A DNA stretch of 64,000 nt from a virus (taxonomy: Duplodnaviria > Heunggongvirae > Uroviricota > Caudoviricetes). A model generated the notes under the pieces. It saw only the letters and a list, made by a program, of their open reading frames with translations. It ran no database searches and was not told the origin of the DNA. The number at the start of each line of letters is the position of its first letter. The first letter of the stretch is position 1. The stretch lies in IMG/VR virus record IMGVR_UViG_3300042270_000314. One strand, given 5' to 3'. Position numbers and translations under genes: made by a program. This document shows, in pieces, positions 12,538 to 55,810 of this stretch.

Positions 12538-13551
12538 ATGTTAGATTTAGATTTTGTGTATTCATTTATAATGGAGAATTTCCCCAATGTGAGTGTGACT
12601 CGTCACGGGTCACACTTCAATTTTCGTTGTCCTTTTTGTGGTGACTCCGAAAAATCTAAAAAGAAAAAAAGATTTCATCTTCAATTTGTGAATGATGAAT
12701 CTATATTCTTCAATTGTTTCAATTGTCAGTCATCTGGTAATTTTTATGATTTATATGCTCATATTCATGGAATATCTTCAGAAGAAGCATATAAGAAACT
12801 TAAACGATTTAATGAAGATTCTATAAAACAAAAACTTGTAACCAAATCAAATATAACTCAAAAGAAAATAGATTTTTCAAAATATGAAAACTTTAATGAT
12901 TTTTTAGAAAGGGACTGTTTATCTATAGATTCTAATCCTACCTCATATTATCATTCTAAGCTGATAGAGTATTTGAAGTTTTTTCAGGGATCAAGAAAAA
13001 TTACTACTAAACTTTTTGTGTGTCATTCTGGTACATTTGAAAAAAGAATTATTATTCCTATTATAGAAAATGATATTTGTATTTTCTTTCAGGGAAGAAG
13101 AATTCTAGAGACACAATATCCCAAATATTTGAATCCCTCTATTGAGAAAGAAAACATCATACTCAATAAAGAAAATTTTAATAAAGAGAAATTTATCATA
13201 ATCACTGAAGGTATTCTAGATGCCGATGCAGTTGGAACACAGGGAACAACTTGTTTGGGTGCATCTATTACTGATGAATTTCTAAGGGAACTTTTTAAAT
13301 ATACAAATAAAGGTATAGTTCTTGCTCTTGATAATGATAAAACAGGTCAAGAACAAATTCAAAAAATCTTCAAGCAAAGTGAGTATAATAAAAAGCTCCT
13401 ATACTTTACTTTAGAAAAAGAAAAAGATCTAAATGAATATAAAACAGATAATCCTAATACAGATGTGTATAAATATGTATTAGATAATGCTCTAACTTAT
13501 TTGGAAGCATATACATTATATACTATGGATTGTAGAAGGAGAAATTGTTAA
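12538..13551 (+). CDS. 61: DNA primase (T4 gp61)
   Basis: NFRCPFCGDS...CFNC zinc finger; TOPRIM TEG.LD and DND. Confidence 0.9.
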   Translation: MLDLDFVYSFIMENFPNVSVTRHGSHFNFRCPFCGDSEKSKKKKRFHLQFVNDESIFFNCFNCQSSGNFYDLYAHIHGISSEEAYKKLKRFNEDSIKQKLVTKSNITQKKIDFSKYENFNDFLERDCLSIDSNPTSYYHSKLIEYLKFFQGSRKITTKLFVCHSGTFEKRIIIPIIENDICIFFQGRRILETQYPKYLNPSIEKENIILNKENFNKEKFIIITEGILDADAVGTQGTTCLGASITDEFLRELFKYTNKGIVLALDNDKTGQEQIQKIFKQSEYNKKLLYFTLEKEKDLNEYKTDNPNTDVYKYVLDNALTYLEAYTLYTMDCRRRNC

Positions 13552-14021
13552 TGATTATTTCATATCATAGAGAAGATTATATAGAGGTAGATGAACTATG
13601 ATTAAGGGCTAATGAAAATGTTATTCAAAAGAAAATACATTTAGTTAAAATATGTTTTGTCAAACCAACAGAAGATAAATTAGATCAGCTATTGTATATT
13701 CTTCCTAAAACAAATAGATTTATTATAGATTCCAATGTTAAAATTTATAATGATTATTTTAAGAAAACAAAGAAGAAGTTTTATGTGGAGAATACATATA
13801 AAGATGAAGCTAAATTTGTTTCATTTTTAAGAAAAAATAATAAAATTCTAATAGACTTTACTAAATTTACATCATCTAATCTTAAATATGTTTTATATGA
13901 ACTAATTTGAGAAGACCTATTGAGTAATATTGAAATTATAAAGATGGACAAAATTTCTTTTGAATTATATAAAGAACATCTTATGAATTGGGATGGTAAT
14001 ATAATTCTAATGAGTGAATAA
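13551..14021 (+). CDS. hypothetical protein (156 aa); in-frame TGA at 13599 and 13908
   Basis: TAATG-coupled to primase and to the next gene only when TGA is read through. Confidence 0.75.
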
Positions 14022-14824
14022 TGAAATCATTAGCTTTTGGACCGTATTTAGGGGACTTTAAATATGAGGTTTTTTATTTTTTACCATATATTAGATGAGT
14101 AAAAACTCTTATTAGTCCTGATAAAATATTTATATCATCACATTTTAATAGAGAATTTTTATATAAAGATATAGTAACGGATTTTTATCCTATTAACCCT
14201 ATATTAAGTATTGATGAATTTTCTCAAAAGAATCATTTTAATAAAAATATATATAAAACAAGGTATAATGAATTAGAAAAAAATTTTAAAGATGCATTAA
14301 CAGATTTAGATAATGTAGATTTTTATAATTTTGAATATAGTAGATTTAAACCTCCCTGTTCTATATATCAACTACTATTTAAAAAGCTTCAATATACAAC
14401 GAGATATAGATTAGAAAATAAAATTGTGTTTATCCCGGATAAATCTGAAAAGTATAATTATACAAAAGATCTATTCATATATTTAAAAGATATCTTGGGG
14501 GATAGACTTGTTGTAGTTGGGGATAATAAATCTCATTTAGAAATTCATAATGAATTATTGAATAGAAGTAATTACCATGATATAATTTATGAGGAACTTA
14601 TAAACTATATCTCCTCATGTAAAGCTGTAATAACCCCAAATTCTGTATGAACTGGTATAGCAAATTTACAGGAAAAACCTGTTCTTTCATGGGGACCTCT
14701 AGTTTCAGAATATAAAGAAGGCAAATATTATTTTAATAACACAAAAGGTAAATTTTACCCTAAATTAGAATTAAATAATTTAAAGAAATGTATAGATTTA
14801 TTTTTGGAGGAAAATTGTGCTTAA
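14021..14824 (+). CDS. putative glycosyltransferase (GT9/GT-B-like); in-frame TGA at 14096 and 14648
   Basis: Continuous 267 aa frame; GPYLGDFKYE N-terminus and ITPNSVWTGIANLQEKPVLSWG C-terminus resemble the heptosyltransferase-like fold. Confidence 0.55.
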
Positions 14825-15107
14825 GATCCACGATGTTTTTTGTGTATGTGGTTATGAGGATGAAATTTTATGTGAAAATGAAGAATTTGGGTTTTGTCCT
14901 AAGTGTGGCAAGGATCTAATGAAGTCATATTCAACATTCAATTTCAAACTTAAATATGATCCTAAAAAGGATAGAGTAGCTTGGGGTAATTCAAATTATG
15001 AAGAGTCCCAATATTGGAGAGAAGTCAAAAAACAAAAATTTGAAACTGGTAAGACTCCTTCTCACCCCGGAAGTTGCGACCACCCAGTAACTAAGAAGGA
15101 GAATTAA
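14817..15107 (+). CDS. zinc-ribbon (FmdB-like) protein
   Basis: CVCG...CPKCG. Confidence 0.6.
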   Translation: MLKIHDVFCVCGYEDEILCENEEFGFCPKCGKDLMKSYSTFNFKLKYDPKKDRVAWGNSNYEESQYWREVKKQKFETGKTPSHPGSCDHPVTKKEN

Positions 15108-16292
15108 ATGAAAAAGACAATTTTAATTCTAGGTGCTAATGGTTATATTGGTTGGGCTCTTGTTCAAAGAATGTCGCTAAAATACCCCAATTATACTATA
15201 GTATGTGTGGATAATTATTCAAGAGACAAAATTGTAGAACTTGAGATGGAATCATATTCTGCAACCCCTATTAGGAGAAAAGCTCAAAGACTAGAATGGG
15301 TACAGAGTTTTTGTTCTAATGTTTGTTGATATGAATTTGATTATGTTAAAGAAGATGGTGCCTTATCTGAACTATTTTTAAATTATGAATTTGATACTAT
15401 TGTAAATCTTGCGCATCAACCTTCTGGTCCATATAGTCAACTATCTGCACATCATTCTGAATATACATTATCTAACAATATCATAGGTACAAATAAAATT
15501 CTTTGGAAAATCAAGGAATGCTGTCCAAAAGCCCATTATATAACTATTGGTTCAACTGGGGAATATTCTCATAATTTGGATATTCCTATTGAAGAAGGTT
15601 ATTTTATGATGGAGGGGGCAGCTGATAAATCTATTTTCCCTCGTCGAACAAATTCAATATATCATACTTCAAAGATCGCAAATACATATATTACAGATAC
15701 TCTTTCAAGAATGTGAAATATTAAGTCAACAGACATAATGCAGGCAGTAGTATTTGGATCATATACTGATGAAATTGATTTCACAAAAAATTATACAAGA
15801 ATGGACACAGATGCGGCATTCGGGACTGTCTGTAATAAGTTTATGACTCAAGCTATTCTTGGTATGGATTTAACAGTATATGGATGGGGAGAGCATAAAC
15901 GAGGATTTATTGCTCTTAATGATTCTATTCAAGCTTTGGAAATAGCTATTAATAATGATGTAGATCAATTTTATTCAGATTATTCCCCTAGAGTATGGAA
16001 TCAATTATCTTTCTGGTGCTCAATGAATGAATTAGCAGAAATGATCAGAATTATAGCATATAGAGAATATAATATAAAAGTAGGGATTAATCATATAGAG
16101 AGCCCTCGTCATGAAATAACAGAGGCGCCTAAACATTATTCATATAAAACAGATATTCTTCAAGATTTGGGTTATTATCCTACTAGATCATTAGAAGAAG
16201 AATTAGAATATTCAATGTGAGTTTTATATCAAAATAGAGAACATTTAAAAGGGCTTGAGAAAAATTTTGAAAACCATATAAGGTTCAAATAA
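15108..16292 (+). CDS. sqdB: UDP-sulfoquinovose synthase (SqdB/SQD1/Agl3-like); in-frame TGA at 15327, 15714, 16218
   Basis: GANGYIGW, HQPSGPYS, GSTGEY, SIYHTSK, RM[TGA]NIKSTDI (SQD1 KAWGIRATDL), FGTVCNKF..QA..G.DLTVYG; TAATG coupling at 16290-16294. Confidence 0.82.
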
Positions 16293-17554
16293 TGATTTAC
16301 TGTTTCGATGGCTGTCATAAGTTATTATCAAAGCATATAACTTATGACAACATAATAATTAATATGATGAAGTTTTGTCTTAATGATAAACGAATATCAT
16401 CATTTATTGTTACTGAACATAATGATTTTATCCAAGATATAGAACTAATTTATTTTAAAATTAAAAAACCTAATATAATATATTACGATAATGAATTTTT
16501 GTTTATTAGATCTATAGACTTTGAAAAGTTTTATAAAATAAAATTCAATTCATATAAAGATTTTATAAATTATGTTAAAAAATATATTGAATATACATGG
16601 GCAAAGAATGATATTAAATTAGATAAAGATAAAAAGTATATAAATTTTTATGGAATAACTAATACAATGTCCATGCCGAATAGAGGACCCATTATTCAAA
16701 CTCAAAATAAAATATATTATTTTAATAGAGATATAAAGAATTATGAAATCGGGATACAACAAAAATATGATTTTTGTCATTGAAATCATATTTTAAACCC
16801 AGATTGTAAACAACTTTCAGGTAGAGTTAGTGTTGGTCCTAATATTGTTATGTTTGGCAATACGTCTATGTGATGAAAAAATCTTAATATAGTAACAGAT
16901 TCAATATGGATGAAAGATTATTTTATAAATAATTTTGGTATAAATGAAAAACAGCTTTCAGTTATTCCGATATATGTAACTGAAGATTTTTATGAAACAG
17001 AAGTATGTTCTGATAGAAATATTGTTGGTATAGTGGGATATCCTAGATATGATGATGTTAAAAATATGTTATCATTAATTTTATTATGTAAAAGATTTCC
17101 ACACCTAAAATTTGAATTACTTTCAAGTAGATCAAAAAATCAATTTCCTACAGAACTCCAGCATATTAATAATTTACAATTTTTAAATGTTCCTCATTAT
17201 GATACTGTAAACATCATGAAAAAGTGGGGAATGTATATTGGGTTGAGCAAACGAGAAAGAGGTCCGGCAGTATTACAAGAATTGAAAGTATTAGGAATCC
17301 CCACAATATGTCCAAATCATACTGGATATAGGGAATTTAACCCCTTTATTGGATTAGATATAAAGCCATTTGAAAAACACACATCTAAAGATTTAGATTT
17401 ATATTCAGATGCCATAGAATATGTTTATAGAAATCATGAACAATGTATAAATAAAACTCAAGAAGACAGAATTAAATTCTGGAATGAAGAAAAATCAACA
17501 AAAATAGTTTCTAAAAAATGAGAAGATTTTTTTAGAAAATGTTTAGGAGCTTAA
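16292..17554 (+). CDS. glycosyltransferase GT-B (GT4-like); in-frame TGA at 16781, 16871, 16874, 17519
   Basis: Single 420 aa frame; LSKRERGPAVLQELKVLGIPTI resembles GT4 E-x7-E region. Confidence 0.7.
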
Positions 17555-17555
17555 A

Positions 17556-18185
17556 ATGGAACTTAAAAATAATATTTGACATAATGCATACTCGAATGAT
17601 CCTAAGAAACATGAATTCTTTAAGAAGCAACTTCAAAATCTAAAAGAGTCTAGACATTGGATATTAGATACTCTATTGTCACTAAAGAAGATCAAAACTG
17701 TGTTAGAAGTAGCACATGGTCCAGGTCTAGATTTAGAATATTTACATAGTAAGTTAGAAGATCTCCCCTTTAACTATACTGGGTTAGATTATACACCTAA
17801 GTTTGTGCAAATGCTAACAGAAAAATATCCTCAACATGTTTTTGTTGAAGGAGACGCAATGAATATGCCCTTTGAGGATAATTCATTTGATGTTGTTTAT
17901 ACAAGACATTCTGTAGAGCATATGCCAGACCCTCATAAAGAACTTGATGAAATTTTTAGATTAGCTAAAAAATATGTTATTATTGGTTGGTTTAGATTAG
18001 TAGATGGCCCTACTACATTAAATATTAAATCTAATATCAATGGTGAATTTCCTATGAATGATTTGAATAGGAAAGAATTTACAGATAGAATATTAGAATG
18101 AGGCACTATTGAAGATACTTTCACTATTAAACATAATGAATGCTGACTAGTAAAGAAGCATACTAAAAAAGGAAAGAAAAAATAA
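17556..18185 (+). CDS. class I SAM-dependent methyltransferase; in-frame TGA at 17577, 18099, 18144
   Basis: VLEVAHGPG, GLDYT, EGDAMNMPFEDNSFDVV, HSVEH; TAATG-coupled to the next gene when read through. Confidence 0.85.
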
Positions 18186-19002: not shown

Positions 19003-19021
19003 GGGGAGTCTAAAACTCCCC
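19003..19021. terminator. Hairpin between convergent genes
   Basis: GGGGAG-TCTAAAA-CTCCCC at the junction of + and - operons. Confidence 0.55.
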
Positions 19022-19654
19022 AAAATCTTTTACAACTCTGTCTCTTTTAAGATTATAATTCTCAATTGATCCTGAACTTACAGAATCTTTTGATGAATAT
19101 GCAGTAAAGAACCCCGCTGAAGGTTTTCCAATATACCCTGCCCGTAAACACTTCAAAAGAAAAGCCCAATCTAAAAGTCTAACATATTGGCTATCAGTAA
19201 CTAAACCAATCTCCTGAATCACATTGCTTTTAAACATTGAATTAGAAGAAATATAATTTCCTTGTTTAAGTTTTTCAGGATTAAAATTGATGGCAGGAAA
19301 TTGACTATTTATATGACCCTTATATTGAAAAGAGCAATATGAATAAGCTACATTAATGACACTATTAGAAAGAACAAAAGACATTTCTTCTAATGTACCT
19401 TCACTCCATTCTGTATCATTGTCAATTTTTATAACATTAGGTGCTAGTCTTTTTGAATCAAGAAGTTCATAGAATCCAATCTCAAAGTTTTTCATTACAT
19501 TATTTTTAGATTCTACAGAAATCCAATTGAAAGGAGCTTCACAACTAAAAACACTATCTAATGTTGTTTTTGAGACTGAGTCCCCTATTCTCAAGGGAGT
19601 GACAATAGAGAACTCAGGGGACTCAGTCTCATGTAAAACTTTTATTTTATTCAT
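19010..19654 (-). CDS. glycosyltransferase family 2-like protein
   Basis: FSIVTP, KIDND (DxD), ISSNSMFK, LLDWAFLL. Confidence 0.7.
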   Translation of the reverse strand: MNKIKVLHETESPEFSIVTPLRIGDSVSKTTLDSVFSCEAPFNWISVESKNNVMKNFEIGFYELLDSKRLAPNVIKIDNDTEWSEGTLEEMSFVLSNSVINVAYSYCSFQYKGHINSQFPAINFNPEKLKQGNYISSNSMFKSNVIQEIGLVTDSQYVRLLDWAFLLKCLRAGYIGKPSAGFFTAYSSKDSVSSGSIENYNLKRDRVVKDFGEF

Positions 19655-20063
19655 CTTTAGCATAAACTTGATCAGCAATTAGCTGAACTCGTTCATATAG
19701 CTCTACTTCTTGTTCTGTGATTTCATGAAAAGAAAGAAGAGAAAACTTCTTAATCTTGATCTTGTCATCGTAGTCTACTGTCTTTAGAAGAAGCTTAACA
19801 AACTCTTCCTTGTCCTCTACGGAAAGGTTAACAAAAACATTATTATCAATGACAATAGCGGCATCATATCCTTCAATTGCTTCATTATCAATAGATAGAA
19901 ACTTCATAAAAGGGTTCAGTGCCTTTACTTCACCAATAACAAACTCTCCATTTGACTTCTTCTTTCTATTACGAGAACAGGTAACCCAACGAAGATTCAT
20001 AAGATGGGGAAAATTCTCTGACAGAATTTCATCAAATCCAACAATTTCAAAACTTTCAAACAT
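19647..20063 (-). CDS. phage metallopeptidase-like fold protein lacking HExxH
   Basis: FPHL...G.V.G...YD..I pattern; no HELxH motif. Confidence 0.35.
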   Translation of the reverse strand: MFESFEIVGFDEILSENFPHLMNLRWVTCSRNRKKKSNGEFVIGEVKALNPFMKFLSIDNEAIEGYDAAIVIDNNVFVNLSVEDKEEFVKLLLKTVDYDDKIKIKKFSLLSFHEITEQEVELYERVQLIADQVYAKDE

Positions 20064-20072
20064 ATTATACTC

Positions 20073-20600
20073 CTAATTTAATACTACAAGTTCAACCTCT
20101 TTAACACCAAATTTATATGCTGCTTCTTTGCTTGCAACCATAAGATCAATTTTCTTTTCAAATCTTTTGTTCATTAAATCCGCAACTTTTCTCACACCGT
20201 ACCCTGGGATATAAACCTTTTTCCCAAGAAGCCATTTAAGGTCGGGACTGACGGCGATATGATATCCGGGTTTGGGTTTAACCATAATTGCTGTGTTTTC
20301 TATATCATCATTACATTCATCAATACTAGGTGTATATGCTGATGCTTTGACTTTAAAAGAAAATTTGGCTTTTAGATTTTGGTTTTCAAGGGTGAGAAAA
20401 TTATTTTCTCCCTGAAGTCTAATGAGTTCAAGTTCAAGTTCTAATTTTTCCTCTCGTAGTGTTTCATTCTCTACTAAAAGTTCTTTATTAAATTCCTCAT
20501 ATTTTTCTTTAAGAGTTCCATTCAATATTGCAGCAAAACCCAAATGAAAGATAAGACAAATAACAAAGACATAAAAAAGAGGAGATTTAAAAAAGTTCAT
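20073..20600 (-). CDS. 3D-domain (peptidoglycan-related) membrane-anchored protein
   Basis: N-terminal TM, coiled coil, then SAYT...IAVSPD...GKKVYIPGYG...ADL...KIDL. Confidence 0.8.
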   Translation of the reverse strand: MNFFKSPLFYVFVICLIFHLGFAAILNGTLKEKYEEFNKELLVENETLREEKLELELELIRLQGENNFLTLENQNLKAKFSFKVKASAYTPSIDECNDDIENTAIMVKPKPGYHIAVSPDLKWLLGKKVYIPGYGVRKVADLMNKRFEKKIDLMVASKEAAYKFGVKEVELVVLN

Positions 20601-20609
20601 AATGCACCT

Positions 20610-21374
20610 TTAGATTTCTATTACAAGGTTTTCGTTAAAAGATAAGTTTTCATAATCGCCGTATCCCTTTGGATTACAAATCAACTTAGTGTCTCCCACA
20701 CTACCTTCATAACATGAATGTACGTGACCAAAGAACCAGTATCCTTCCCAACCCATTAGATGAGTATTATCTACAACAAAATAAGGATTAAGTAAACTGT
20801 TTTTATATTGGGGAGCAATGGCTTTTTCTATTGGGGCAAAATGAGAAATAACAACTCTCTTTTGACCTTCGGTTCTTTTGAGCCAATCCTTTAGATTTTT
20901 AACAAATGTTTTGTATTGCGCTTTATGGTCTTCTACTGACCACTTTCTAAATATACCAACAATACCTGGATCAGTCTTAGATATCATATGAAAGTCATTA
21001 ATGCCTCGTTCAGCCGTGATTTCAGCTAATGGTTGATTTCTATATAAAGAAAAATCTGTACACATCATTCCACCGAAGAAATGTACACCATTGATTATCA
21101 ATTCTTCATTATGTAGTAGTTTAAAATTTGGGTATTCATATTCTAAATGTCTTAAACCTCGTATTGTATCTTCAAAATTTTTCATATAAGCCTCATGATT
21201 TCCAGGAACCATGATAATTTTAACATGTGATGGTATTTCATCTAAAAATTTTGAGTGTCTATTTTTTGTATAAATATCTCCAGCAAGAACTAAAACGTCC
21301 TCGCCAATAAATTTATAACTAAATTCTAAACAATCCATTTCCAAATGTAAATCACTAAATACCCTAATTTTCAT
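20610..21374 (-). CDS. metallophosphoesterase
   Basis: SDLH, LAGDI, PGNHE, SHFAP, FGHVH. Confidence 0.88.
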   Translation of the reverse strand: MKIRVFSDLHLEMDCLEFSYKFIGEDVLVLAGDIYTKNRHSKFLDEIPSHVKIIMVPGNHEAYMKNFEDTIRGLRHLEYEYPNFKLLHNEELIINGVHFFGGMMCTDFSLYRNQPLAEITAERGINDFHMISKTDPGIVGIFRKWSVEDHKAQYKTFVKNLKDWLKRTEGQKRVVISHFAPIEKAIAPQYKNSLLNPYFVVDNTHLMGWEGYWFFGHVHSCYEGSVGDTKLICNPKGYGDYENLSFNENLVIEI

Positions 21375-21440
21375 ACTTAACCTATAGTTTATCCTTCTTT
21401 ACCATACATTACTTCTTTATTAAAGAAATTGTAAACATTT

Positions 21441-21608
21441 TTATTCGTCTTCGTTATCAGAAAATCCTACTGTGTATCCTTCTTCATATCCTTCATCATA
21501 GGCTTCTTGATATAATTCTTCACATCATTCAACAAAATCTTCTAATGCCATTTCAATATTTTCACCAAACTCTTCATATATTTTTTCAACTTCTTTATAA
21601 TTTAGCAC
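21441..21608 (-). CDS. small acidic protein (55 aa); in-frame TGA at 21525-21527
   Basis: GTG start, DFVE[TGA]CEELYQEAYDEGY; not in track. Confidence 0.5.
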
Positions 21609-21777
21609 CCTCGTTTCCTCATTGTAATAGAATTATAATAACCACGTTCATAGCCTGCTTCAAAGCCTTGATCATAAGATTTACGAATTTCTTTTTCTAT
21701 AAAAGCTTTAAATTCTTCAATTCCGTATTCTCCATCTATAACCAAATCATAAACTCTTTTATATTTTTCCTCGTTCA

Positions 21778-21975
21778 TTATGAATCCTTCTTGAATTTTT
21801 GTGTAACATTACCAGCTACATAGACCGCTATAGTAGCCATAAGAACACCACTATAAACCTGATCAGTTATATGGTTATTTATAACGAGATAATGTGCTGA
21901 GATTAAAGATAAAACACACAAAATAAACTTTCGGCTCATGAGTCGAATAAGCATAAAAAGTACTTCATCTCTCAT
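21778..21975 (-). CDS. small membrane protein
   Basis: Two hydrophobic segments, SRKF motif. Confidence 0.5.
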   Translation of the reverse strand: MRDEVLFMLIRLMSRKFILCVLSLISAHYLVINNHITDQVYSGVLMATIAVYVAGNVTQKFKKDS

Positions 21976-22418
21976 TAATAATCCACCCTTTTTAATTTTT
22001 CAAAATCTACTACAATTCCAACACAAAACGGATCACCGTCATCATAGATTTTAAATTTATAATGTGGGCAATCACAATCAAAAATCCAAAGAAAGTTTTC
22101 TCCTTCAAAATCTTCATTATCACGGACAAATAATTTCAAAAGACGTCGATCATTCTTTCTTTTAAAATATCTCTCAACCTCTTCTTCATCCTCATGATCA
22201 ATATTAGCCCAAAGGGGGATTAGACCTCCCTTATCTAGATTAAAAAGATTACTATCATAATAGGTTTCATCATGAAAACATCCACGAAGCTCTATACAAT
22301 CATCAGAATGCCCAAAAACAACTAACCACTCATTATCCTTTGCGGTTTGAAAATGTGACTCGTCAAGTTCTCGCATATCAAACTCACCTAACCATTTTGC
22401 ATATTCTTCGATTAACAT
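21975..22418 (-). CDS. hypothetical protein
   Basis: 147 aa, FGHSDDCIELRG. Confidence 0.6.
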   Translation of the reverse strand: MLIEEYAKWLGEFDMRELDESHFQTAKDNEWLVVFGHSDDCIELRGCFHDETYYDSNLFNLDKGGLIPLWANIDHEDEEEVERYFKRKNDRRLLKLFVRDNEDFEGENFLWIFDCDCPHYKFKIYDDGDPFCVGIVVDFEKLKRVDY

Positions 22419-22426
22419 AATTTCTC

Positions 22427-23020
22427 CTAATGGTAATCCACAGAATAAATCTCTCGTTTTGACATATATTCTTTAATCATGTCTATAGTCCAAATACCAG
22501 GGCCCCCATAGTAAATAGAATCCCAACCTACATCTAAAATACGTCCCTGTCCCCTATATGCCATATGGCAGTGTCCATGAATATGACCAATGCCTTTAGA
22601 AACAGTTGACCATGATGCTAAAGGATAATGAGAACACACTAAAGGGTATTTCTTTACATTCTTGACCCCAGTATCGAATCTTCTTTCTAAAAGATAATCA
22701 AGGACATTAACATTAGTTAAACCCTTATTTTTTCGATTTGCAGAAAGACTCTTTAAGAAATTAACATTATCATGATTACCCGGAACAATATTGAAACTTT
22801 TAAAATTTAACTTATTAAGAAAATCATTAGCAAGTTCTAATGTTTTCCATTGTCCCATGAAAATGTCCCCCAACACAAAAACATCATCTTCTTCATAAAC
22901 ATTAAGATTCCAATGTGTGATGATGAAATCATGCATATCGTCTAAAGAAGTATGGGGTCTAAATGCTATAGCGCATCTTTCATGACCAATATGTAGATCT
23001 GATGTAAATTTATCAGCCAT
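22427..23020 (-). CDS. metallophosphoesterase
   Basis: TSDLHIGH, LGD, PGNHD, SHYP, HGHCH. Confidence 0.88.
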   Translation of the reverse strand: MADKFTSDLHIGHERCAIAFRPHTSLDDMHDFIITHWNLNVYEEDDVFVLGDIFMGQWKTLELANDFLNKLNFKSFNIVPGNHDNVNFLKSLSANRKNKGLTNVNVLDYLLERRFDTGVKNVKKYPLVCSHYPLASWSTVSKGIGHIHGHCHMAYRGQGRILDVGWDSIYYGGPGIWTIDMIKEYMSKREIYSVDYH

Positions 23021-23745
23021 TCCTAATCCTTGTATTTTAATCTACATTTTTTGCAGCACCCTTCAAATGTTTCCACAGATAACTCTGAATCGGGAGAAAT
23101 CATTTTATATGTGGCAAGACCTTCATGAATGTCATTATAAGAAATAAACTTTCCACAATAATCACAACGAGGAGGAAGAATCTTTTCTTTCTTAGGCTTT
23201 AGTCCAAAAATTCCCATTTACTTTTCCTCATATCTTTTGTTTTTGTTGTTAAAATAATCATTACAAAGCTTTATGATCATAGCTTTAGATAGGCCGTCAG
23301 CATAGTGACGTTTAGCAAAAAGACCTAAAAGAGCCTCGGCTTTAACTAAATCCGATTGAGCTTCTTTTAAATCTTTTTCAAGTTTTGTTATGTACTCTTG
23401 TTCAAACATTTCGGTTACTCCATAGATTCGGGATATTAAAAAGTTCCAGTTTGAACAATTCCTAATGGATCTTCAATCCTATTAAGCACTGTGTTTGCCC
23501 ATTCTCGGGCCACATTCCAATATGCATCATTTAGGTCTGAAAGAAAATGAATCAGTTGACCCTTAATTTTTGCATTTTTACAATATTTTTCGACTGAAAA
23601 TTTTGTTGAAAGCATCATATCAATTCTATAAGAATATGTTTCTTCATCCCAAGATTTTTCATGGATGGTTTGAGCATCCAAAATAATGTTAGCAATAACA
23701 CAAAGTTCAACACCAGTAAACAACTTTTCCAATAGATTCATTGTA

Positions 23746-23985
23746 CTATAGAACATCTTCTGTCTCCTTGATATTTTTAAAAAATTCTTTTACTTTTTCT
23801 TCAATAATGGATTCGCTTTCGTCAGTGTAAAATCCATCATTACATGTATCACACCAATAAACTTCTGCTGGATGAGAAAATTTATGCCCTTTGTATTCAA
23901 ACTCATCTTGAATCTTCTTTAGATACATTCTGTCTTGTTCACAAATAAGACATTTACATCCATTATACAACATGTTTCTTTTCAT
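23746..23985 (-). CDS. YgiT/MqsA-type zinc finger protein
   Basis: CLIC...YWCDTC. Confidence 0.55.
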   Translation of the reverse strand: MKRNMLYNGCKCLICEQDRMYLKKIQDEFEYKGHKFSHPAEVYWCDTCNDGFYTDESESIIEEKVKEFFKNIKETEDVL

Positions 23986-24192
23986 TTTTAATTACCTTAA
24001 GACAATTTTTACATGTAACATCTTCAATAGACATTCCACTAGAACTAATAACATACCACATTTCATTTAATTCTTTACCACAGAAAGTTTCATTGTTGTC
24101 TGCTGCATGAACAGTTGAATATGTTTCAGAAAACTTTTCTTTATTATTAGGAGAATATTTACAACGTTTTACATAATTTTGTATTTTCATAT

Positions 24193-24669
24193 CTAGTACC
24201 TATAAATGTGTTTGAATTTGTCATCAATAAAATTCTTTTGATCAGGATACAGCAATTCAGTAATTCCCCACTTAGGATCCAGATCTTCCCATCTGTTCTT
24301 CATTTTTAACATAATCTCTTCTGGAACGTCATGAATAGTTTTATATTGGGAAGTAACTTTGATTACAAAAAGTTCTAAGTTAGGAAAAATATTCTTGAGT
24401 TCTAAATACTTCTCCATTTCCCAATTGGTAGTAAATGTGTTAGATACAATTACACTTTGATTCCCATAAAGGTCTTTTATGACATTATGATAGCACCAGT
24501 TATGAGCAGAGGATATGAGTTTTGGATTAAACTCGTATCCTTTAATTGTCATATAAAAGGAATCAGCTTCCCATCTTGTAAAACAATAATTCCCTGCACA
24601 AATTTCTCGAGCAAGAGTTGATTTACCCGAACCAGGAATTCCACGAATCAAAAGAAGTTTACTCATCAT
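24193..24669 (-). CDS. polynucleotide-kinase-like P-loop ATPase (AAA_33)
   Basis: IRGIPGSGKST, WEAD, VIVSNTF, IHDVP. Confidence 0.8.
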   Translation of the reverse strand: MMSKLLLIRGIPGSGKSTLAREICAGNYCFTRWEADSFYMTIKGYEFNPKLISSAHNWCYHNVIKDLYGNQSVIVSNTFTTNWEMEKYLELKNIFPNLELFVIKVTSQYKTIHDVPEEIMLKMKNRWEDLDPKWGITELLYPDQKNFIDDKFKHIYRY

Positions 24670-24884
24670 TTTCCCCGATATTATTTAAAATCATCTCAGC
24701 TAATCTGTAGTTTATAACATTATCTATATCAATATCTATAGGTTCCAGATCATCAATCATTTCATCAACCCAAGATTCTAATTCAGAATTCATCTTATTT
24801 TCCTTATTTAGAATTAATCAGATAAGAATAATTTAATAAGAATTCGGAAGATTGTAAATAAAAATTTAGAGAAATAATGTTAAT

Positions 24885-28510: not shown

Positions 28511-28549
28511 GATATTGACTCCTTTAAGATTTATTGTTTCGTTAAGAAT

Positions 28550-28578
28550 AGATTATAAAAAACTTAAAGGTTTGTAAA
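28550..28578 (-). promoter_or_regulatory. sigma70-type early promoter
   Basis: TTTACA-17-TAATCT. Confidence 0.72.
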
Positions 28579-37349: not shown

Positions 37350-37353
37350 CTAA

Positions 37354-45415: not shown

Positions 45416-45766
45416 CTAAACATCGCAAATACACCATTTTCCGTCATCTTTACATTCAACTTTCAATTTGTAATCTTTCATAGATTCATCAACGGCTGCT
45501 TCTATAATTGCCATCTTTCCCGATTTCTTCATAACCTCTAAACGTAACCAAGATTTAAATTCTTTTGTATTGACGCACTTCTCAAAGGCATCTCTTTTAT
45601 TCTTGTGTCGTGAACGAGAAGCCTGTGAATACCCGTGAGATCCACTAGGTCTATGAAAACAGTGAACAGCTGAAGAAGTTTTATTTACTTTTTGGCCACC
45701 ACTCCCCGACGCTCTAGTATATGACCATTCAAAATCATCCGCAGTTAAAGAAAATAGTTTATCCAT
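45416..45766 (-). CDS. class I release-factor-like GGQ-domain protein (ArfB-like)
   Basis: RASGSGGQKVNKTSSAV...H.PSG...SRS..KNK; lacks stop-codon recognition domains. Confidence 0.85.
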   Translation of the reverse strand: MDKLFSLTADDFEWSYTRASGSGGQKVNKTSSAVHCFHRPSGSHGYSQASRSRHKNKRDAFEKCVNTKEFKSWLRLEVMKKSGKMAIIEAAVDESMKDYKLKVECKDDGKWCICDV

Positions 45767-49672: not shown

Positions 49673-52228
49673 TTAAAAGAAGAAATTTAATGTTTCAGCA
49701 TTTAGATCCAGAAGATGAAGTTTTCCACATGGTTCAAGAAGCATTTCAATTTTTTTAATAAAGAATTTTTCAATCATTTTTTCAATATCAGGCTGAACAC
49801 ATTTAAGTTCTTTAGGATATTTAGATGAATATGTCAAAGTTTCAAAACCATAAGAATTTGGTAATAGGTAAATAACTTTGCTTTTTTCACCTTCAGTAAT
49901 TTCTTGATATTTGTCTTGGAGTCCAAACTTATTGATTAGAACCTGATGCGCATAGACACCCTTAACATGCCACGGACATCCTTTGACAGGCCCATCTGGT
50001 CCAAGATATTTTTTAATATTATTTACACCAATATTACCCGAAATATCTTCAAATGGAAGTTCACGAATTGCTTTTTTATAACTAATAATTTTGGATCTAA
50101 TATTCGAATCTTCTTCATTCTTAAGAATACATGTCATTACATCTTTAAGCATTTCTTTAATGGGTTTAGATGTTTCTGATCTAATAATGTCTAATCCAGT
50201 AACTTTAATTTTATCAACAGTCTTTCCTTCTTCATTTACTACCCAACATCCATATTTCTTCTTCTGCACTAATAGAACAGAAGGGCATACAATCTCCTGT
50301 TTCCAATTAATTGTATATTCCTTTTCTTGAGATGCAAAATGTTGATTTTGAATAATATTAAACGAATAATCATTAATAACTTTTTCAAGTTCTTTACAAA
50401 TCTTTAAAATAAAATTTACTTTTTCTTTATTTGATTGTAGTGAATTAAATTTGGATTGTAACTCTTTATTAGAATTGATGTATTTACCTATGCCCAGGAA
50501 ACAACTGTCAGTATCCTGGTAAAGAACAAAATCTAAATCTTGTGTATTACATTTTTCATTAAAATAACTATTAATAAAAGATGCAGAATTTTTTAATATA
50601 TGTCTGCCACATGCAGTAATTGCTTCTGCAATTCTAAGATTATATAATCTAAAATATGGTGTACTTAGTGCGCCATAAAGACTATTAAGGATACCAACCT
50701 TTACTGCTAACTGTGTAGTATTAAGTTCTGCAATCTTGTTTTTATCACCATCTTCCTTTTTCAATTGTAACATCTTATCTTTTGTATCTTTTCTTAACTT
50801 GAAAAAGATTTTTTCAATAATAGTTACAACACCCTGTTTAGTGTTTTTAAACACAGCACCATTTGGTGCAATAGAAAATGTACCTTTCTTAAGTAATGTA
50901 TTGAATATTTGAAGTTCTTTACCTGTAAGTTGCTTAATTTCTTTCTCAGGGCTCTCCAATGATATAACAGGAAATTCTCTTTTAGTTGTATAATCAATAA
51001 CTTCCTGTTCAGTTAAATTAACAATGCACCCAAAATAAGTTTCAGGACTCATATTTAAAGTAATAATATTATGTGGGTACATTGAAGTTACGTCAATATC
51101 TACTACCCATTCATGTAACCCTCTATCTGGTTCTTTGACAAAAGCAGCTTCAAACCATTCAGTCTTTCCCCCTTTAAGCTTAGGAGCACATAGATTATTT
51201 CTTCTATAATATGTTAAGAATATTCCTTCAAGGACATTTGTAACTTTATCATAAAATTTCATTGGGCATCTTGAAATCATACTAATAGTCTGAATAAGAT
51301 AAAGATACTTGAGTTTGTTTTCAAGTTTATAAATTAGCTTAACATCCTGAATATTATAGTCAACATATCTTTCCCAATCATTCTCAAAAAGCTCTTTTAA
51401 AGAACCATCATATTCTAACTTTGATTCTTTAAGTTCATTCTTAGCAATTTGGTCAAGCTTATATGATTCTGGGTTAGAACGAGTATATCCTTTATAAACA
51501 CTCATGTAATCTAGAACTGAGATTCCTGCAAAGTCAAAATTCAATCCAGAACCATCTTTCTTTTCCCAAACAGAATATTCCATAATAGGGGAAATTTTTC
51601 TGAACATTTTATTACTTTCACCAAAAAGCTTCTTACATCTGTAATACAGATATGGAATATCAAATCCATCAATATTCCATCCAGTAAGAATATCAATATC
51701 TGCTTCTTTATACATGAAGTCAAAAAAATCTCTCAAAAGAATTTCTTCAGTAGAACAGTAGGTAAAATTCTTTTTATGTTTTCCTGTATATGGTTTGATT
51801 CCCCAAGTTTTTGTACATCCATTAATATCGATTGAAATAGCTGTAACAACCCCTTCTGCTTCCTCAGGGGTTGGGAATCCCTTATCAATATTCACTTCTA
51901 TATCCAGACTTCCAATTCTTAGATCTGGTCTATATAATTCATCATCAGGGATATCATAATATCGCTCTGCTAAAAATTGAAGCTCTGGTTTTACATGATC
52001 TTCATACTTCTTAATAGATTTCTCGTCATTGAATGTTTTATATTTTTGGTAGTTTTGGAATTCAAGTTTCTTTACAGGAACATCATCAATACTTTTGATT
52101 GTTCCTTCTTTATCTGGAACAAAAATATAGGGAACCCAATCAATTTCAGTTGACATTCGTTCCCCGTTAATGGTTTCCCAAAGAGTAATCTTGCTTGATT
52201 TATAATCAAAATGAACATTTCTAAACAT
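49673..52228 (-). CDS. 43: family B DNA polymerase (T4 gp43)
   Basis: LDIE exonuclease I, GWNIDGFD, DVTSMYP, K..LNSLYG, YQDTDS, KKKY. Confidence 0.95.
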   Translation of the reverse strand: MFRNVHFDYKSSKITLWETINGERMSTEIDWVPYIFVPDKEGTIKSIDDVPVKKLEFQNYQKYKTFNDEKSIKKYEDHVKPELQFLAERYYDIPDDELYRPDLRIGSLDIEVNIDKGFPTPEEAEGVVTAISIDINGCTKTWGIKPYTGKHKKNFTYCSTEEILLRDFFDFMYKEADIDILTGWNIDGFDIPYLYYRCKKLFGESNKMFRKISPIMEYSVWEKKDGSGLNFDFAGISVLDYMSVYKGYTRSNPESYKLDQIAKNELKESKLEYDGSLKELFENDWERYVDYNIQDVKLIYKLENKLKYLYLIQTISMISRCPMKFYDKVTNVLEGIFLTYYRRNNLCAPKLKGGKTEWFEAAFVKEPDRGLHEWVVDIDVTSMYPHNIITLNMSPETYFGCIVNLTEQEVIDYTTKREFPVISLESPEKEIKQLTGKELQIFNTLLKKGTFSIAPNGAVFKNTKQGVVTIIEKIFFKLRKDTKDKMLQLKKEDGDKNKIAELNTTQLAVKVGILNSLYGALSTPYFRLYNLRIAEAITACGRHILKNSASFINSYFNEKCNTQDLDFVLYQDTDSCFLGIGKYINSNKELQSKFNSLQSNKEKVNFILKICKELEKVINDYSFNIIQNQHFASQEKEYTINWKQEIVCPSVLLVQKKKYGCWVVNEEGKTVDKIKVTGLDIIRSETSKPIKEMLKDVMTCILKNEEDSNIRSKIISYKKAIRELPFEDISGNIGVNNIKKYLGPDGPVKGCPWHVKGVYAHQVLINKFGLQDKYQEITEGEKSKVIYLLPNSYGFETLTYSSKYPKELKCVQPDIEKMIEKFFIKKIEMLLEPCGKLHLLDLNAETLNFFF

Positions 52229-52244
52229 TTTAACCTCCTAAATA

Positions 52245-52288
52245 AAAATAATATAGATGATCTATTATGTAAACAAATCATCTATATT
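52245..52288 (-). promoter_or_regulatory. Early/middle promoter of gene 43 embedded in an inverted repeat
   Basis: TTTACA(52273-68)-17-TATTTT; arms AATATAGATGAT (52250-61) and ATCATCTATATT (52277-88). Confidence 0.6.
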
Positions 52289-52298
52289 ATTAAAATTA

Positions 52299-52976
52299 TT
52301 AAATTTGTTGAACTAAATCTAATTCTTCTAAAGTATTAAATGATCTAGCCTTTTCAAAAGTAACTTCAACTATTTCGCCATCTATTAAATCAAAATTAAA
52401 AATATCCAGAAAGCTTATTTCTGTTCCTTTTTCATATTTAAACTTTTTGATTTTAATAAGACTCTTTAGAGCTTTTACAACATCTCTCTTTTTAAATAAA
52501 AACAATGACATATCATGATATCCAGTACCTGAAGTGTCATCCCCAAGTTTAGAAAATTTGATGTTAGTAATTTTTCTTTCCTCTGTTTCAATTTTTACAT
52601 AGGGATTCTCCTCGATAACTACAGGCATAAGAAACTTATTGTTATAAGAATCTAAGCAATGTTGAATAACAGAAGAAGATTGGATAGAATCGCCCCATGA
52701 CAAAAATACTAAATCTGTATTTTTGATAGGAAGCTCAAGTAGTGATGTTAATGCTGCTTCACCACAGCCATATCCAGATTTAATAGGAACAATTTCAAAA
52801 TGAGGATTCTTGAATTTTGAAAAGAATACCAAATTTGAAAATGAACACATTAGAAAAATTTTATCAACTTTTCCTTTAAATGCATTTATGTTTTCATTTA
52901 GAGCATATAGAGCTTTAGGGATATTTGACTTAAATCTTGTTTGATTTCCTGCTGCTAAAATAATAGCATATTTCAT
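52299..52976 (-). CDS. sugar-phosphate nucleotidyltransferase (NTP_transf/GlmU-N-like)
   Basis: IILAAGNQTRFKSNIPKAL, GCG.A, WGD, FNT.EEL. Confidence 0.85.
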   Translation of the reverse strand: MKYAIILAAGNQTRFKSNIPKALYALNENINAFKGKVDKIFLMCSFSNLVFFSKFKNPHFEIVPIKSGYGCGEAALTSLLELPIKNTDLVFLSWGDSIQSSSVIQHCLDSYNNKFLMPVVIEENPYVKIETEERKITNIKFSKLGDDTSGTGYHDMSLFLFKKRDVVKALKSLIKIKKFKYEKGTEISFLDIFNFDLIDGEIVEVTFEKARSFNTLEELDLVQQI

Positions 52977-54688
52977 TAATAATCCTCACTTAATAATCTA
53001 AGAATCAAATTTGTTTCTTTGATGGATTTTACATTAATAGCTGTATCGCACTTTTTGGAAATTTCTACATCATTACCAGAGTCACATTCATCACCAATAT
53101 ATAGACATTTATTAAAACTATATTGATCTAAAATATATTTCTTACATGCATTCTTTGGAATTATATCAATACTAGTAGTTCCAGTAACTTTAGCAATACA
53201 ATCAATACTATTATGAAAAAAGAATATATTAAGATGTGTTGTAAATTCTTTTCTATATTGATCATCTAGGGGTTTAATATTAATACAAGTTATAATTTTG
53301 CCATAACCTCTTTCTGTAACTTTAATTGACATTCCATGAATATCCAAATAATTCCTTATTAAATCTATATCATCCTCTTTAATTCTCATAATATGGTCAT
53401 AATAAAGATCATTTTTATAACAAATTAATCCACCATCAGCCCAAATATCAATACCAGAATGATCCCCAAATCTTTTTCTAATATGAGAATATTTGTTTCC
53501 AGAAGCAATAACGATTTTTTTCTTTTTTGCTAAATATTTTACATATTCAACATTTGCAATAGAAATAGAATTTAAGTAATAATCTTTCTTTCTTGAGTAA
53601 ATTGTATCATCAAAATCCATAAAAATAGTATCATGATTAAGTAAATTATAATATATAGAATAAACTGCATTACCTAAAAGAATAGGGTTATGTTTTCCTT
53701 TATTATTTTCCATATCATAAAAGACACTAGTATCTTTATACCCGGGATTTACAATACGCATAATCATAGATGCATTATTATTAAAAAGAAATGTTGTATT
53801 GTTTAAATCAACATATGAAGATACTATTTTAATAATATCTGCACTATTGATACCTTTCATATCCTTATCTTCTTCATTATTAACAATAAAAATCTTTTTA
53901 CCAGAATAATCATTCATAATATGCTGAAATTCAGTATTCTTATATGTGGGGATCAATGAACTCCATTGAGTTCCTGAACTAAAGATCAAAAGATCTGTTT
54001 TTTCTAAAATAAGATCTTTAACTTTTGGATTAAGAAAGTAATAATGGCTTTGTGTGCATTCAAGATCCTTGTTATAGAAGAACACATCTTTAATTTCAAT
54101 TTCTTGGTTGTTTAGATCAACAATGGAGCCCTCATCCATAAGAACGTTTTTTGTTGTGTGAGCTCGAAGTACAAGATTCTCAAAAGAATTTATTACAACA
54201 TCATCTTTTAGATTTAAAAATTTCTTAAAAAACTCTGCTACCTTTTCTTCTTTATTCGGGAACCCCTCATAATAAATACACATCCCGCCATACACAATAT
54301 TAGCAATAGAAAAATCTTTAAACTCAAAATTAGGGTCTATTCTTTCAAAAAATAGATCTACAGCATTATAGAAAATCTGAAGCTCCCATTGTTCTAAAGC
54401 ACTTTCAATAAATTTTTTAGGATTCTCTTTTGGAATATCAAACCGCATTTCATAAAAATCTAAAATACTTTGATTATGGATGTCGTGATTTGTAAGATAC
54501 TGAACATAATGATTTTTTCTAAGATCAGAGGGTCCAAGACAATTACAAATTTCTCGAACCTGACCAGTACTTTTACCATCATCATACATATTAATTAAAT
54601 TGGTGATCTTACAATCAGGATAAAGCGCTTTTAGGCCCTTTTGTAACTGAATTGAACCGGATCCACCAGACAAAATAGTTATATTCAT
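52976..54688 (-). CDS. CofD/YvcK(UPF0052)-like domain fused to a HAD-IIB phosphomannomutase-like domain
   Basis: N-terminal LSGGSG, DDGKSTG, GPSDLRK, GTQWSSLIP; C-terminal DFDDT, ASG, SIDI.PK...K..L, GDECDSGND.EI. Confidence 0.78.
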   Translation of the reverse strand: MNITILSGGSGSIQLQKGLKALYPDCKITNLINMYDDGKSTGQVREICNCLGPSDLRKNHYVQYLTNHDIHNQSILDFYEMRFDIPKENPKKFIESALEQWELQIFYNAVDLFFERIDPNFEFKDFSIANIVYGGMCIYYEGFPNKEEKVAEFFKKFLNLKDDVVINSFENLVLRAHTTKNVLMDEGSIVDLNNQEIEIKDVFFYNKDLECTQSHYYFLNPKVKDLILEKTDLLIFSSGTQWSSLIPTYKNTEFQHIMNDYSGKKIFIVNNEEDKDMKGINSADIIKIVSSYVDLNNTTFLFNNNASMIMRIVNPGYKDTSVFYDMENNKGKHNPILLGNAVYSIYYNLLNHDTIFMDFDDTIYSRKKDYYLNSISIANVEYVKYLAKKKKIVIASGNKYSHIRKRFGDHSGIDIWADGGLICYKNDLYYDHIMRIKEDDIDLIRNYLDIHGMSIKVTERGYGKIITCINIKPLDDQYRKEFTTHLNIFFFHNSIDCIAKVTGTTSIDIIPKNACKKYILDQYSFNKCLYIGDECDSGNDVEISKKCDTAINVKSIKETNLILRLLSEDY

Positions 54689-54697
54689 ATACTCTCC

Positions 54698-55810
54698 TTA
54701 CAGATTTTCTTCTATAATTTTTCTAAAATCTTTACAATATTCATTTATATCTATCATCGTATCCTTGTATTGTAAATCTTGAATCAAGGAAATATGTTTT
54801 GGGTTTTGCTTTAGAAATCTAAGTTTCTTTGCTACATCTTCTCTTGAAGATACATAGCAAAATTTTCTAAGTGTCTCATTAGTAAATACTCGTTTATTTT
54901 TATCATAAGAATCATCTATAAATGTAATATTACCACATAGAATAGATTCATATATCCTTTGTGCTAGATCATCAACCTGCTTATACAGAATGTCACCAAT
55001 AATAACTGTGGAAAGCCCCTTCTTCATTTCTTCATCAAAGTTTTCATATGGAACAGCTTTGCCAAATTCCGGCATCCTAAGATTTTGTTTGTTTTTCTTA
55101 AAATGTTTTTCTTCAATCTTTCCAAACATATTAACTTTAATATCTTCTGGATAGCCAAAATAAAATTTGATCATATCATCTTCACGTCTACCAGATCTAA
55201 ATGTTCCACCATAACTAATATCCCAAATACACTCTTCAGGATTTAGAAAATTTTTATTCATAGTTACAAGGGGAAACTTCTCAAATGGAAAATGAATAAC
55301 ATCTTTAATATCAATCTTGCTCTTTTTGATATGCTCTTTATATTTTAAAATATCTTTTGGTTGACAGATATATTTGATGTCTTTCCTTTGGATAAGAATA
55401 TCTTCCTTTAAGTAATTATCTCTCCATTCCTTCTTTTCAATAGAGGGCCAAACCTGAGTTAAAGTAAGATTAGGATCACATAGAATATAGAAAACCGGAC
55501 CTTTGAAATTATTTACAATTTTGTAAGCAATTGTATCTGATGGAGAATCTTGACCACCAAAATAATTTGCATTACCATTTAAGATCAATAAACAATCATA
55601 TTCTTCACTTCTAACTTCTTCTTTTAAAATATCTCTAATTTGAAAATCCAAAGGCATTTGATCTTTATTAAGAATTTTGGTATAAGCGGTTACATCAATT
55701 CCTGCAGTTGTAAGAAGCTTAATAATTGCTAGGGTTTCCCCATTGCCGCCGGAAGTAGACCTAGAATTAACACAGATTCTGGATCCAAGTTTTAAAACAC
55801 ATACTTTCAT
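54698..55810 (-). CDS. bgt: DNA beta-glucosyltransferase homolog (T4 BGT family)
   Basis: NYFGG, QVWP, HFPFE, YGGTFRSGRRE (T4: YGGSFRSGQRE), IIGD..Y, RIYES. Confidence 0.85.
   Translation of the reverse strand: MKVCVLKLGSRICVNSRSTSGGNGETLAIIKLLTTAGIDVTAYTKILNKDQMPLDFQIRDILKEEVRSEEYDCLLILNGNANYFGGQDSPSDTIAYKIVNNFKGPVFYILCDPNLTLTQVWPSIEKKEWRDNYLKEDILIQRKDIKYICQPKDILKYKEHIKKSKIDIKDVIHFPFEKFPLVTMNKNFLNPEECIWDISYGGTFRSGRREDDMIKFYFGYPEDIKVNMFGKIEEKHFKKNKQNLRMPEFGKAVPYENFDEEMKKGLSTVIIGDILYKQVDDLAQRIYESILCGNITFIDDSYDKNKRVFTNETLRKFCYVSSREDVAKKLRFLKQNPKHISLIQDLQYKDTMIDINEYCKDFRKIIEENL

Follow-up and report, generated by a model that had tools for sequence, protein, structure and literature searches.

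Gene-class-dependent use of in-frame TGA codons in an uncultured T4-like phage

Why should an AT-rich phage use TGA freely inside some of its genes and exclude it strictly from others? The question was raised by a window of 64,000 nucleotides from the IMG/VR virus record IMGVR_UViG_3300042270_000314, in which an earlier note had contrasted a TGA-free block around the DNA polymerase gene with a TGA-rich gene cluster. That note proposed a standard-code host in which TGA-containing genes work only after the phage supplies a suppressor or disables release factor 2 (RF2). Within a single virus contig of 133,051 bp (G000; 30.9% GC), the window corresponds to positions 57983-121982, read on the minus strand, and coordinates below are those of the window unless they are given as genome positions. 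We compared the contig with a relative, IMGVR_UViG_3300028601_000019 (G001; 164,754 bp), which is syntenic with it at ~75% nucleotide identity and nearly complete, both of its ends abutting a 1.5-kb stretch spanned by G000; the genome of the lineage is ~165 kb in size at 31% GC. The metagenome from which G001 derives (3300028601) is a municipal-landfill biofilm (bioRxiv 10.1101/2021.10.08.463351).

Our analysis confirmed that TGA use depends on gene class. The two contrasted blocks are as the earlier note had described them: the four minus-strand genes of the polymerase, nucleotidyltransferase, CofD, and beta-glucosyltransferase block (49673-55810) hold 18 TGG codons (11 + 1 + 3 + 3) and no TGA, and the six plus-strand genes of the cluster at 13545-18185 hold 14 in-frame TGA and 16 TGG (Fisher p = 0.0006). 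The TGAs of the cluster start at 13599, 13908, 14096, 14648, 15327, 15714, 16218, 16781, 16871, 16874, 17519, 17577, 18099, and 18144; the tandem TGA-TGA at 16871/16874 that had been remarked upon is real, and the same pair is kept as TGA-TGA in G001. Because GC content is ~27-28% in both the polymerase block and the cluster, hereafter the sugar cluster, it does not explain the contrast. Across the whole contig, a filtered set of 178 genes, obtained by discarding open reading frames (ORFs) that scored poorly for coding potential when Trp codons were disregarded, contains 141 TGA and 404 TGG codons, TGA thus making up 26% of Trp codons, and 61 of the 178 genes (34%; 40% in G001) carry at least one TGA. 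These codons are not spread uniformly among genes. The per-gene chi-square was 270, whereas 20,000 permutations averaged 148 and peaked at 211, and in G001 it was 346 versus 172; not one of the 20,000 permutations reached the observed heterogeneity in either genome. Several single TGAs of "early" genes proved to be longest-ORF artefacts, in which the TGA lies upstream of a Shine-Dalgarno-bearing start, and the real contrast between early and late genes is therefore sharper than the raw counts.

Comparison of aligned genes shows that TGA encodes tryptophan, although not every gene makes use of it. Pfam and PHROG domains run across TGA positions, so that the TGAs lie within real genes, and coding density rises from 85% under code 11 to 94% under code 4 in G000 (from 84% to 94% in G001). 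Both W294 and W313 of UvsX, each encoded by TGA, align with conserved tryptophans of E. coli RecA. Among 110 reciprocal-best orthologs of G000 and G001, 54 columns pair TGA with TGA and 59 pair TGA with TGG (113 together), and TGA, where it is replaced, gives way to Y, F, and L, just as TGG does. In the DNA polymerase, Trp columns that are TGG in G000 and G001 are TGA in a sister lineage. There is no certain TGA stop: all filtered genes end in TAA or TAG once TGA is taken as sense, the C-terminal TGAs that have an ortholog are sense, and a few orphan C-terminal TGAs are undecided. The context of TGA, compared with that of TGG, has more A at -1 (pooled p = 0.0005) and more A and less G at +4 (pooled p = 0.02), in genomes that are non-independent and with local AT content as a confounder. 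An N-terminal bias of TGA within genes was seen in G001 and absent in G000, and hence is not robust.

Which genes carry the recoded codon? The TGA fraction of Trp codons is 0.71 in lysis genes, 0.57 in homing endonucleases, 0.53 in virion and packaging genes, 0.50 in genes for recombination, helicases, and single-stranded DNA-binding protein (SSB), and 0.47 in the sugar cluster. In genes of the core replisome, nucleotide metabolism, and DNA modification, it is 0.08. Recoding is enriched in lysis, structural, and homing-endonuclease genes, with the exception of the major capsid and scaffold genes, where the fraction is 0 in both G000 and G001. The class split is real, as the earlier note held, and does not run between replication and structural genes, given that gp41, gp32, UvsX, and a UvsW-like helicase carry TGA and the capsid and scaffold genes carry none. 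The lack of TGA in these last two suggests that UGA is decoded at greater cost and with lower efficiency than UGG.

The class dependence is also maintained. Genes that carry TGA in G000 tend to carry it in G001 as well (odds ratio 28.5, p = 3e-12), and the TGA fraction per gene is correlated (Spearman 0.74). In the 57 ortholog pairs that are TGA-free in both genomes, all 105 of 105 conserved Trp columns are TGG/TGG, while the K, E, and Q codons of these pairs are near saturation, 71% of them being A-ending and 34% of their conserved columns switched. In the 50 TGA-bearing pairs, 46% of Trp codons are TGA and 32% of columns differ. Since TGG is retained in the TGA-free genes while synonymous A/G sites saturate, it is selection that maintains the difference, and the genes fall into two regimes, one of strict TGA exclusion and the other of near-neutral TGA use. 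A native code-4 host would be expected to bring TGA to the level set by mutation bias in nearly all genes; with A-ending K/E/Q codons at 71-74%, TGA stands at 26% of Trp codons overall and at 0% in a large conserved class.

TGA content also follows promoter class. Two motifs recur between genes: a T4-type early promoter, composed of GTTTACA, a spacer of ~17 nt (16-18 nt), and TAnnnT, and the T4 late motif TATAAATA, usually located 17-51 nt upstream of a strong Shine-Dalgarno sequence and start codon. The early motif was derived from intergenic sequence and used in place of a scan with the E. coli sigma-70 consensus, which was set aside for its little positional enrichment. When each gene was assigned to the nearest upstream motif within its co-directional run, a comparison that the earlier note had proposed, TGA accounted for 14 of 177 Trp codons (8%) in early genes and 97 of 262 (37%) in late genes (p = 5e-13). 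The early-promoter genes that mostly avoid TGA, in the role of stop as well as of sense codon, include those for nucleotide metabolism, DNA modification, polymerase, clamp, primase, topoisomerase, and ligase and many small ORFs; the late-promoter genes that use TGA almost like TGG include neck, tail, packaging, and lysis genes, the sugar operon, and homing endonucleases. TATAAATA is conserved at 12 orthologous positions of G000 and G001 (odds ratio 176), preceding genes for adaptor, sheath, capsid, scaffold, vertex, gp32, a homing endonuclease, the endolysin, a methyltransferase, and the first gene of the sugar cluster, and versions with one mismatch precede UvsX, a 1401-aa gene, and a head-closure gene. 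A homolog of the late sigma factor gp55, 39% identical to T4 gp55, is encoded in the part of G001 that is missing from G000.

In the window, the polymerase block belongs to the largest TGA-free run (49673-56676, minus strand; 27 TGG and no TGA, G001 orthologs likewise without TGA), which contains a 101-aa ORF, an MSMEG_6728-family protein (7 TGG), the beta-glucosyltransferase, a CofD/HAD fusion, a 225-aa gene, and the family-B DNA polymerase. A T4-type early promoter (TTTACA, 16-18 nt, TAnnnT) lies just upstream of the polymerase start, at 52245-52273 on the minus strand, and in the same place in G001. The sugar cluster is a late operon of a 158-aa gene, a 267-aa gene, a 96-aa ORF, an NAD epimerase/dehydratase (SQD1-like), a 420-aa gene, and an S-adenosylmethionine (SAM) methyltransferase, with Pfam domains spanning its TGAs. 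Its late motif TATAAATA (13468-13475, plus strand) overlaps the primase gene at its 3´ end, 70 nt ahead of where the cluster begins, and is conserved at the orthologous site in G001; a second conserved copy (17446-17453, plus strand) is situated 103 nt upstream of the methyltransferase gene. Given these motifs and the gp55 homolog, the contrast between the two blocks is a genuine comparison of an early with a late unit.

T4 itself uses the standard code, with sigma-70 promoters for early genes and gp55/TATAAATA promoters for late genes. Its resemblance to the phage described here extends to T4-type replisome, recombination, virion, and packaging genes, a beta-glucosyltransferase, the GTTTACA early -35 element, and the late motif. 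PHROG, Pfam, and BLAST matches to T4-like core proteins include the family-B DNA polymerase (32% identical to cyanomyovirus gp43), gp41 helicase, primase, RNase H, gp32, UvsX, gp46, clamp, clamp loader, topoisomerase II, beta-glucosyltransferase, RNA ligases, and many homing endonucleases, along with major capsid, portal, sheath, tube, and an intein-bearing terminase among the virion proteins. By its core gene set and its gp55-type late promoters, G000 is an uncultured T4-like myovirus. What would set it apart from T4 is a codon-level gate, proposed here to be superimposed on the transcriptional cascade.

We favor, as the probable explanation, an alternatively coded phage in which UGA is read as Trp only after a switch in a standard-code host. 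The host would terminate at UGA, full-length products of TGA-bearing genes would appear only when UGA had come to be read as Trp in the infected cell, and an in-frame TGA could serve as a translational gate layered on the transcriptional program from early to late. Such a switch would have to precede replication and late transcription, and not just lysis, since gp41, gp32, UvsX, and G001 gp55 all depend on read-through of UGA. The host code, the timing, and the agent that decodes UGA are what we infer here; the meaning of TGA, its dependence on gene class, the selection behind it, and its link to promoter class are what we observed. The idea of a timing switch in a standard-code host, put forward in the earlier note, is partly supported and is already published (bioRxiv 10.1101/2021.08.26.457843), but its decoder is not in evidence, and real potential for novelty lies only in that decoder.

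Several points weigh against the favored explanation. Sense TGA occurs behind early-type promoters in the gp41 helicase, RNA ligase 2, and gp55 of G001, and with TGA present in early-promoter genes, a strict rule that early genes follow the standard code fails. The gp41-type replicative helicase (8761-10086, plus strand) has a single TGA inside the gene, at codon 99, where T4 gp41 has an aromatic residue, and its G001 ortholog also has one TGA. For RNA ligase 2, read-through of TGA is probable on weak evidence. The gp55 gene of G001 (genome 26117-26629) has an early-type promoter upstream, and its only Trp codon, located in the most conserved segment (AYITQ..NAF), is written TGA; late transcription would then itself depend on UGA read-through. 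Promoter classes are motif-based assignments, and their association with TGA is weaker in G001, at 25% in early versus 40% in late genes (p = 0.002). As for the agent of the switch, we found no UGA-decoding tRNA with a UCA anticodon in G000 or G001 by ARAGORN, Rfam, or a custom T-arm scan, and neither genome contains a PCRF-containing release factor or a tryptophanyl-tRNA synthetase (TrpRS). G000 is a fragment from which ~31 kb of G001 is missing, and G001 has an unclosed junction of at least ~1.5 kb.

The search for a decoder was broad. ARAGORN was run in default, intron, low-threshold, and mitochondrial modes, and Rfam at permissive E-values over the whole contig, which yielded no extra tRNA and no group I intron. 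The additional hits of the relaxed, intron, and mitochondrial ARAGORN modes are noise inside coding sequence, and the sole non-coding hit (genome 3355-3433) falls in a YqeY/GatB-like ORF that had been masked by the greedy gene set. A scan of G000 and G001 for a T-arm plus acceptor gave no candidate outside coding sequence. Code-change machinery, be it a suppressor tRNA, RF1, or TrpRS, was found in neither genome. Neither of the agents proposed in the earlier note, a suppressor supplied by the phage or a means of disabling RF2, is visible in G000 or G001.

The only release-factor-like gene of the contig encodes a GGQ-only (RF-1 domain) peptidyl-tRNA hydrolase protein of 116 aa (45416-45766, minus strand), which has no codon-reading domain and no TGA. 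It cannot be the decoder of the lineage, because G001 lacks the gene. The protein belongs to a widespread metagenomic family of 115-145 aa, its gene is flanked by a DSPc-like ORF and an RlaP RNA-repair nucleotidyltransferase gene, and it may be an ArfB/PrfH-like ribosome-rescue factor. A structured RNA of ~600 nt next to the terminase gene was set aside as a candidate recoding-linked factor; its most conserved 22-mer was found in just two contigs, both from the same landfill sample. The region itself (genome 43354-44356; conserved at G001 3751-4596) is large, GC-rich, and non-coding, with long invariant stretches and apparently compensated helices between G000 and G001.

How could UGA be read by a phage that has no tRNA of its own for it? 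One conceivable answer, which we offer tentatively as a long shot, is that a TGA-free early product disables RF2 or alters the host tRNA-Trp, and that the switch is a master timer upstream of the T4-type cascade. The notion of a master timer stems from the products that would need UGA read-through before late transcription, namely the helicase, the SSB, the recombinase, and gp55. Two early proteins are rich in Trp codons that are all TGG and are conserved in relatives: the MSMEG_6728-family protein (55842-56312, minus strand; 7 Trp in 156 aa) and a protein with 13 Trp in 177 aa (genome 2063-2596). Another TGA-free ORF, similar to YqeY and the GatB C-terminus (genome 3090-3542; PHROG "tRNA amidotransferase"), is missing from longest-ORF lists because an antisense ORF, which exists only if code 4 is applied, hides it.

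The alternative that survives best, although we consider it unlikely, is that UGA already means Trp in the host, which would be an undescribed code-4 lineage with a wall or would have an opal-suppressing tRNA-Trp of its own, and that the phage needs no decoder. Avoidance of TGA in early or highly expressed genes would then reflect selection for speed or accuracy of decoding. Such a host would account for the lack of a phage decoder of any kind in ~165 kb of the lineage, for the sense TGAs of early-to-mid genes behind early-type promoters (gp41, and gp55 in G001), for a sister lineage with 7 TGA and 2 TGG in the polymerase and 4-5 TGA and no TGG in the major capsid, and for a TGA that is essentially never a stop. 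UGA would, however, be cognate to a UCA tRNA in that host, and AT pressure should spread TGA everywhere, which is difficult to reconcile with 57 ortholog pairs that hold TGG at 105 of 105 columns next to A/G sites saturated at 71% A. Moreover, TGA is carried by 34-40% of genes here versus ~90% in phages matched to a recoded host, and the ten phage tRNAs serve mostly A-ending codons, a set that usually marks a host less AT-rich than its phage.

The lysis genes bear on the same question. Those of the window (38229-39208, minus strand) encode an endolysin with GH108 and PG_binding_3 domains (3 TGA, 2 TGG) and an adjoining 137-aa protein (2 TGA, 0 TGG), with a conserved TATAAATA at 39230-39237. 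From the peptidoglycan-binding domain of the endolysin, it follows that the host has peptidoglycan. Mollicutes, the main free-living code-4 group, are wall-less and lack the peptidoglycan that the endolysin would bind. A wall-less code-4 host is therefore unlikely, and this, together with a class dependence that is under selection and follows promoter class, favors a standard-code host in which TGA-containing genes become translatable only after a switch. Other clues on the host side are the -35/-10 type of the early promoters and the strong Shine-Dalgarno sites.

We think it quite improbable that an ordinary phage suppressor tRNA was missed, whether because it lies in the unassembled junction of G001 or because it is too unusual for the tRNA finders. 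The ~31 kb absent from G000 and the open ends of G001 leave some room for one, and suppressors of TGA are detected in only 35% of code-4 phages, with non-canonical tRNAs suspected (bioRxiv 10.1101/2021.08.26.457843). Yet the stretch of G000 that bridges the ends of G001 (genome 48682-50189) holds no tRNA, G001 covers the missing parts of G000, and the intron-aware, relaxed, and T-arm searches gave no candidate outside coding sequence, with no group I intron in Rfam. A mosaic built by gene flow, in which TGA-rich modules came from fully recoded relatives and TGA-free ones from standard-code relatives without any gating, is highly improbable: the richest TGA users are indeed mobile (homing endonucleases with 9/0, 3/0, and 5/3 TGA/TGG, and TnpB), the sugar cluster is accessory, and the clade includes standard, partly, and fully recoded lineages able to exchange modules, but TGA is also found in syntenic core genes for virion, packaging, and recombination, TGA has exchanged with TGG at 59 columns of G000 and G001 so that its content is determined inside the lineage, TGA-free genes have remained so although their synonymous sites are saturated with change, and TGA content tracks conserved promoter motifs.

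Several other loci of the window deserve mention. The gene for gp32 and the two homing-endonuclease genes that follow it (58728-62150, minus strand) carry 2 TGA and 3 TGG, 3 TGA and 0 TGG, and 3 of each, respectively; TATAAATA precedes gp32 and each of the two endonuclease genes (62201, 61130, and 59230), and gp32 has both an early and a late promoter upstream. A run of mostly small, early-type genes (19010-37674, minus strand) is largely TGA-free and includes phosphoesterases, a PNK-like ATPase, a DNA methyltransferase, and RnlA (0 TGA, 7 TGG). The gene of a TnpB-type insertion sequence (IS) element (41065-42246, plus strand; TnpB only, with a Cas12f1-like_TNB domain) has atypical codon usage and one TGA, which lies within the RuvC-III motif and is read as sense; relatives have Leu at that position. 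There is one TnpB copy in G000 and there are three in G001, at 87-89% identity. TnpB was rejected as a clue to the host; its only genome matches are 2-kb contigs binned in metagenome-assembled genomes (MAGs) of Woesearchaeota and Peribacteria, which are not credible. Among the tRNAs, one of 78 nt (genome 56859-56936) has the anticodon UAG (Leu, CUA) and a short variable arm, not the long arm of bacterial tRNA-Leu, and similar short "Leu" tRNAs are found in the standard-code relatives L008 and L009.

The relatives show how far recoding can go in this clade. Those found in IMG/VR by polymerase or capsid include phages of the standard code with TGA stops, others partly recoded like G000, and low-GC ones that are almost fully recoded, with 7 TGA and 2 TGG in the polymerase and 4-5 TGA and no TGG in the capsid. 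The early MSMEG_6728-family gene has a homolog that stays at 0 TGA and 7 TGG even in the lineage where recoding has gone furthest. Across the clade, the boundary of the recoded set moves while a TGA-free core stays. Five contigs (12-70 kb) of other recoded relatives contain no tRNA whatever and are hence uninformative on suppressors, and a search for relatives through the CCA-adding enzyme found none. In a fully recoded sister lineage, a 93-nt tRNA-like gene with a long arm (L006:1048-1140, also L013:1327-1419) has an irregular anticodon loop of 6 or 8 nt (CUGCAG), to which ARAGORN assigns no anticodon; it has no homolog in G000 or G001. In the sister lineage, a stop divides the DNA polymerase (L006:8335-10923) into two neighboring ORFs, one of 573 aa and one of 288 aa.

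Alternatively coded phages have been surveyed by Borges et al., in a study that reportedly appeared in Nat Microbiol in 2022. By its features, the phage resembles the Agate clade described there: TGA encodes Trp in part of the genome, GC is low, and the TGA stop is nearly lost; recoding affects lysis, structural, and homing-endonuclease modules spread along a large genome (127-154 kb class); replication genes are variably recoded, standard-code relatives are near, and many members have no detectable suppressor tRNA. What differs is that the present lineage is T4-like and that its relative G001 comes from a landfill biofilm metagenome and not from the gut. The survey documented partial recoding of TGA or TAG in phages of standard-code hosts, with stop-codon loss under low GC, and found lysis genes, structural genes, and a homing endonuclease to be recoded, replication genes variably so, with close standard-code relatives (bioRxiv 10.1101/2021.08.26.457843). 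Genes with a recoded stop made up 26-71% in phages of standard-code hosts and ~90% in those of recoded hosts, and a TGA suppressor was detectable in just 35% of code-4 genomes, being frequent and not obligatory (bioRxiv 10.1101/2021.08.26.457843). In addition, T4-type promoter motifs tie TGA to promoter class here, the capsid and scaffold are TGA-free, and gp55 of G001 needs UGA read-through.

Two further systems offer points of comparison. Dual-coded crAss-like and Lak phages, in which TAG is reassigned to Gln (code 15), have been confirmed by metaproteomics (Peters et al., PMC9523058). They share with the present phage the block-wise use of two codes in one genome and the recoding of late genes. 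They differ in codon and amino acid, in often having a suppressor tRNA and sometimes RF2, and in their Bacteroidota hosts; the early promoters of the present phage are of the -35/-10 type. The code-25 phages of Absconditabacteria are phages of natively recoded hosts (cited in bioRxiv 10.1101/2021.08.26.457843) and likewise have in-frame TGA with no need of a phage decoder, but there ~90% of genes carry TGA and it encodes Gly, whereas here 34-40% of genes carry it, it encodes Trp, and a conserved set strictly excludes it.

As an instance of recoding, this case is ordinary among recoded phages, and it extends partial TGA recoding to a T4-like lineage of landfill biofilm, beyond the gut and rumen samples of the original survey. 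Its T4-type promoters allow codon use to be read against the temporal program, its relatives range from the standard code to almost complete recoding, and a nearly complete genome is available in which no decoder was found. These properties make the lineage useful for learning how UGA is read when a phage lacks a suppressor.

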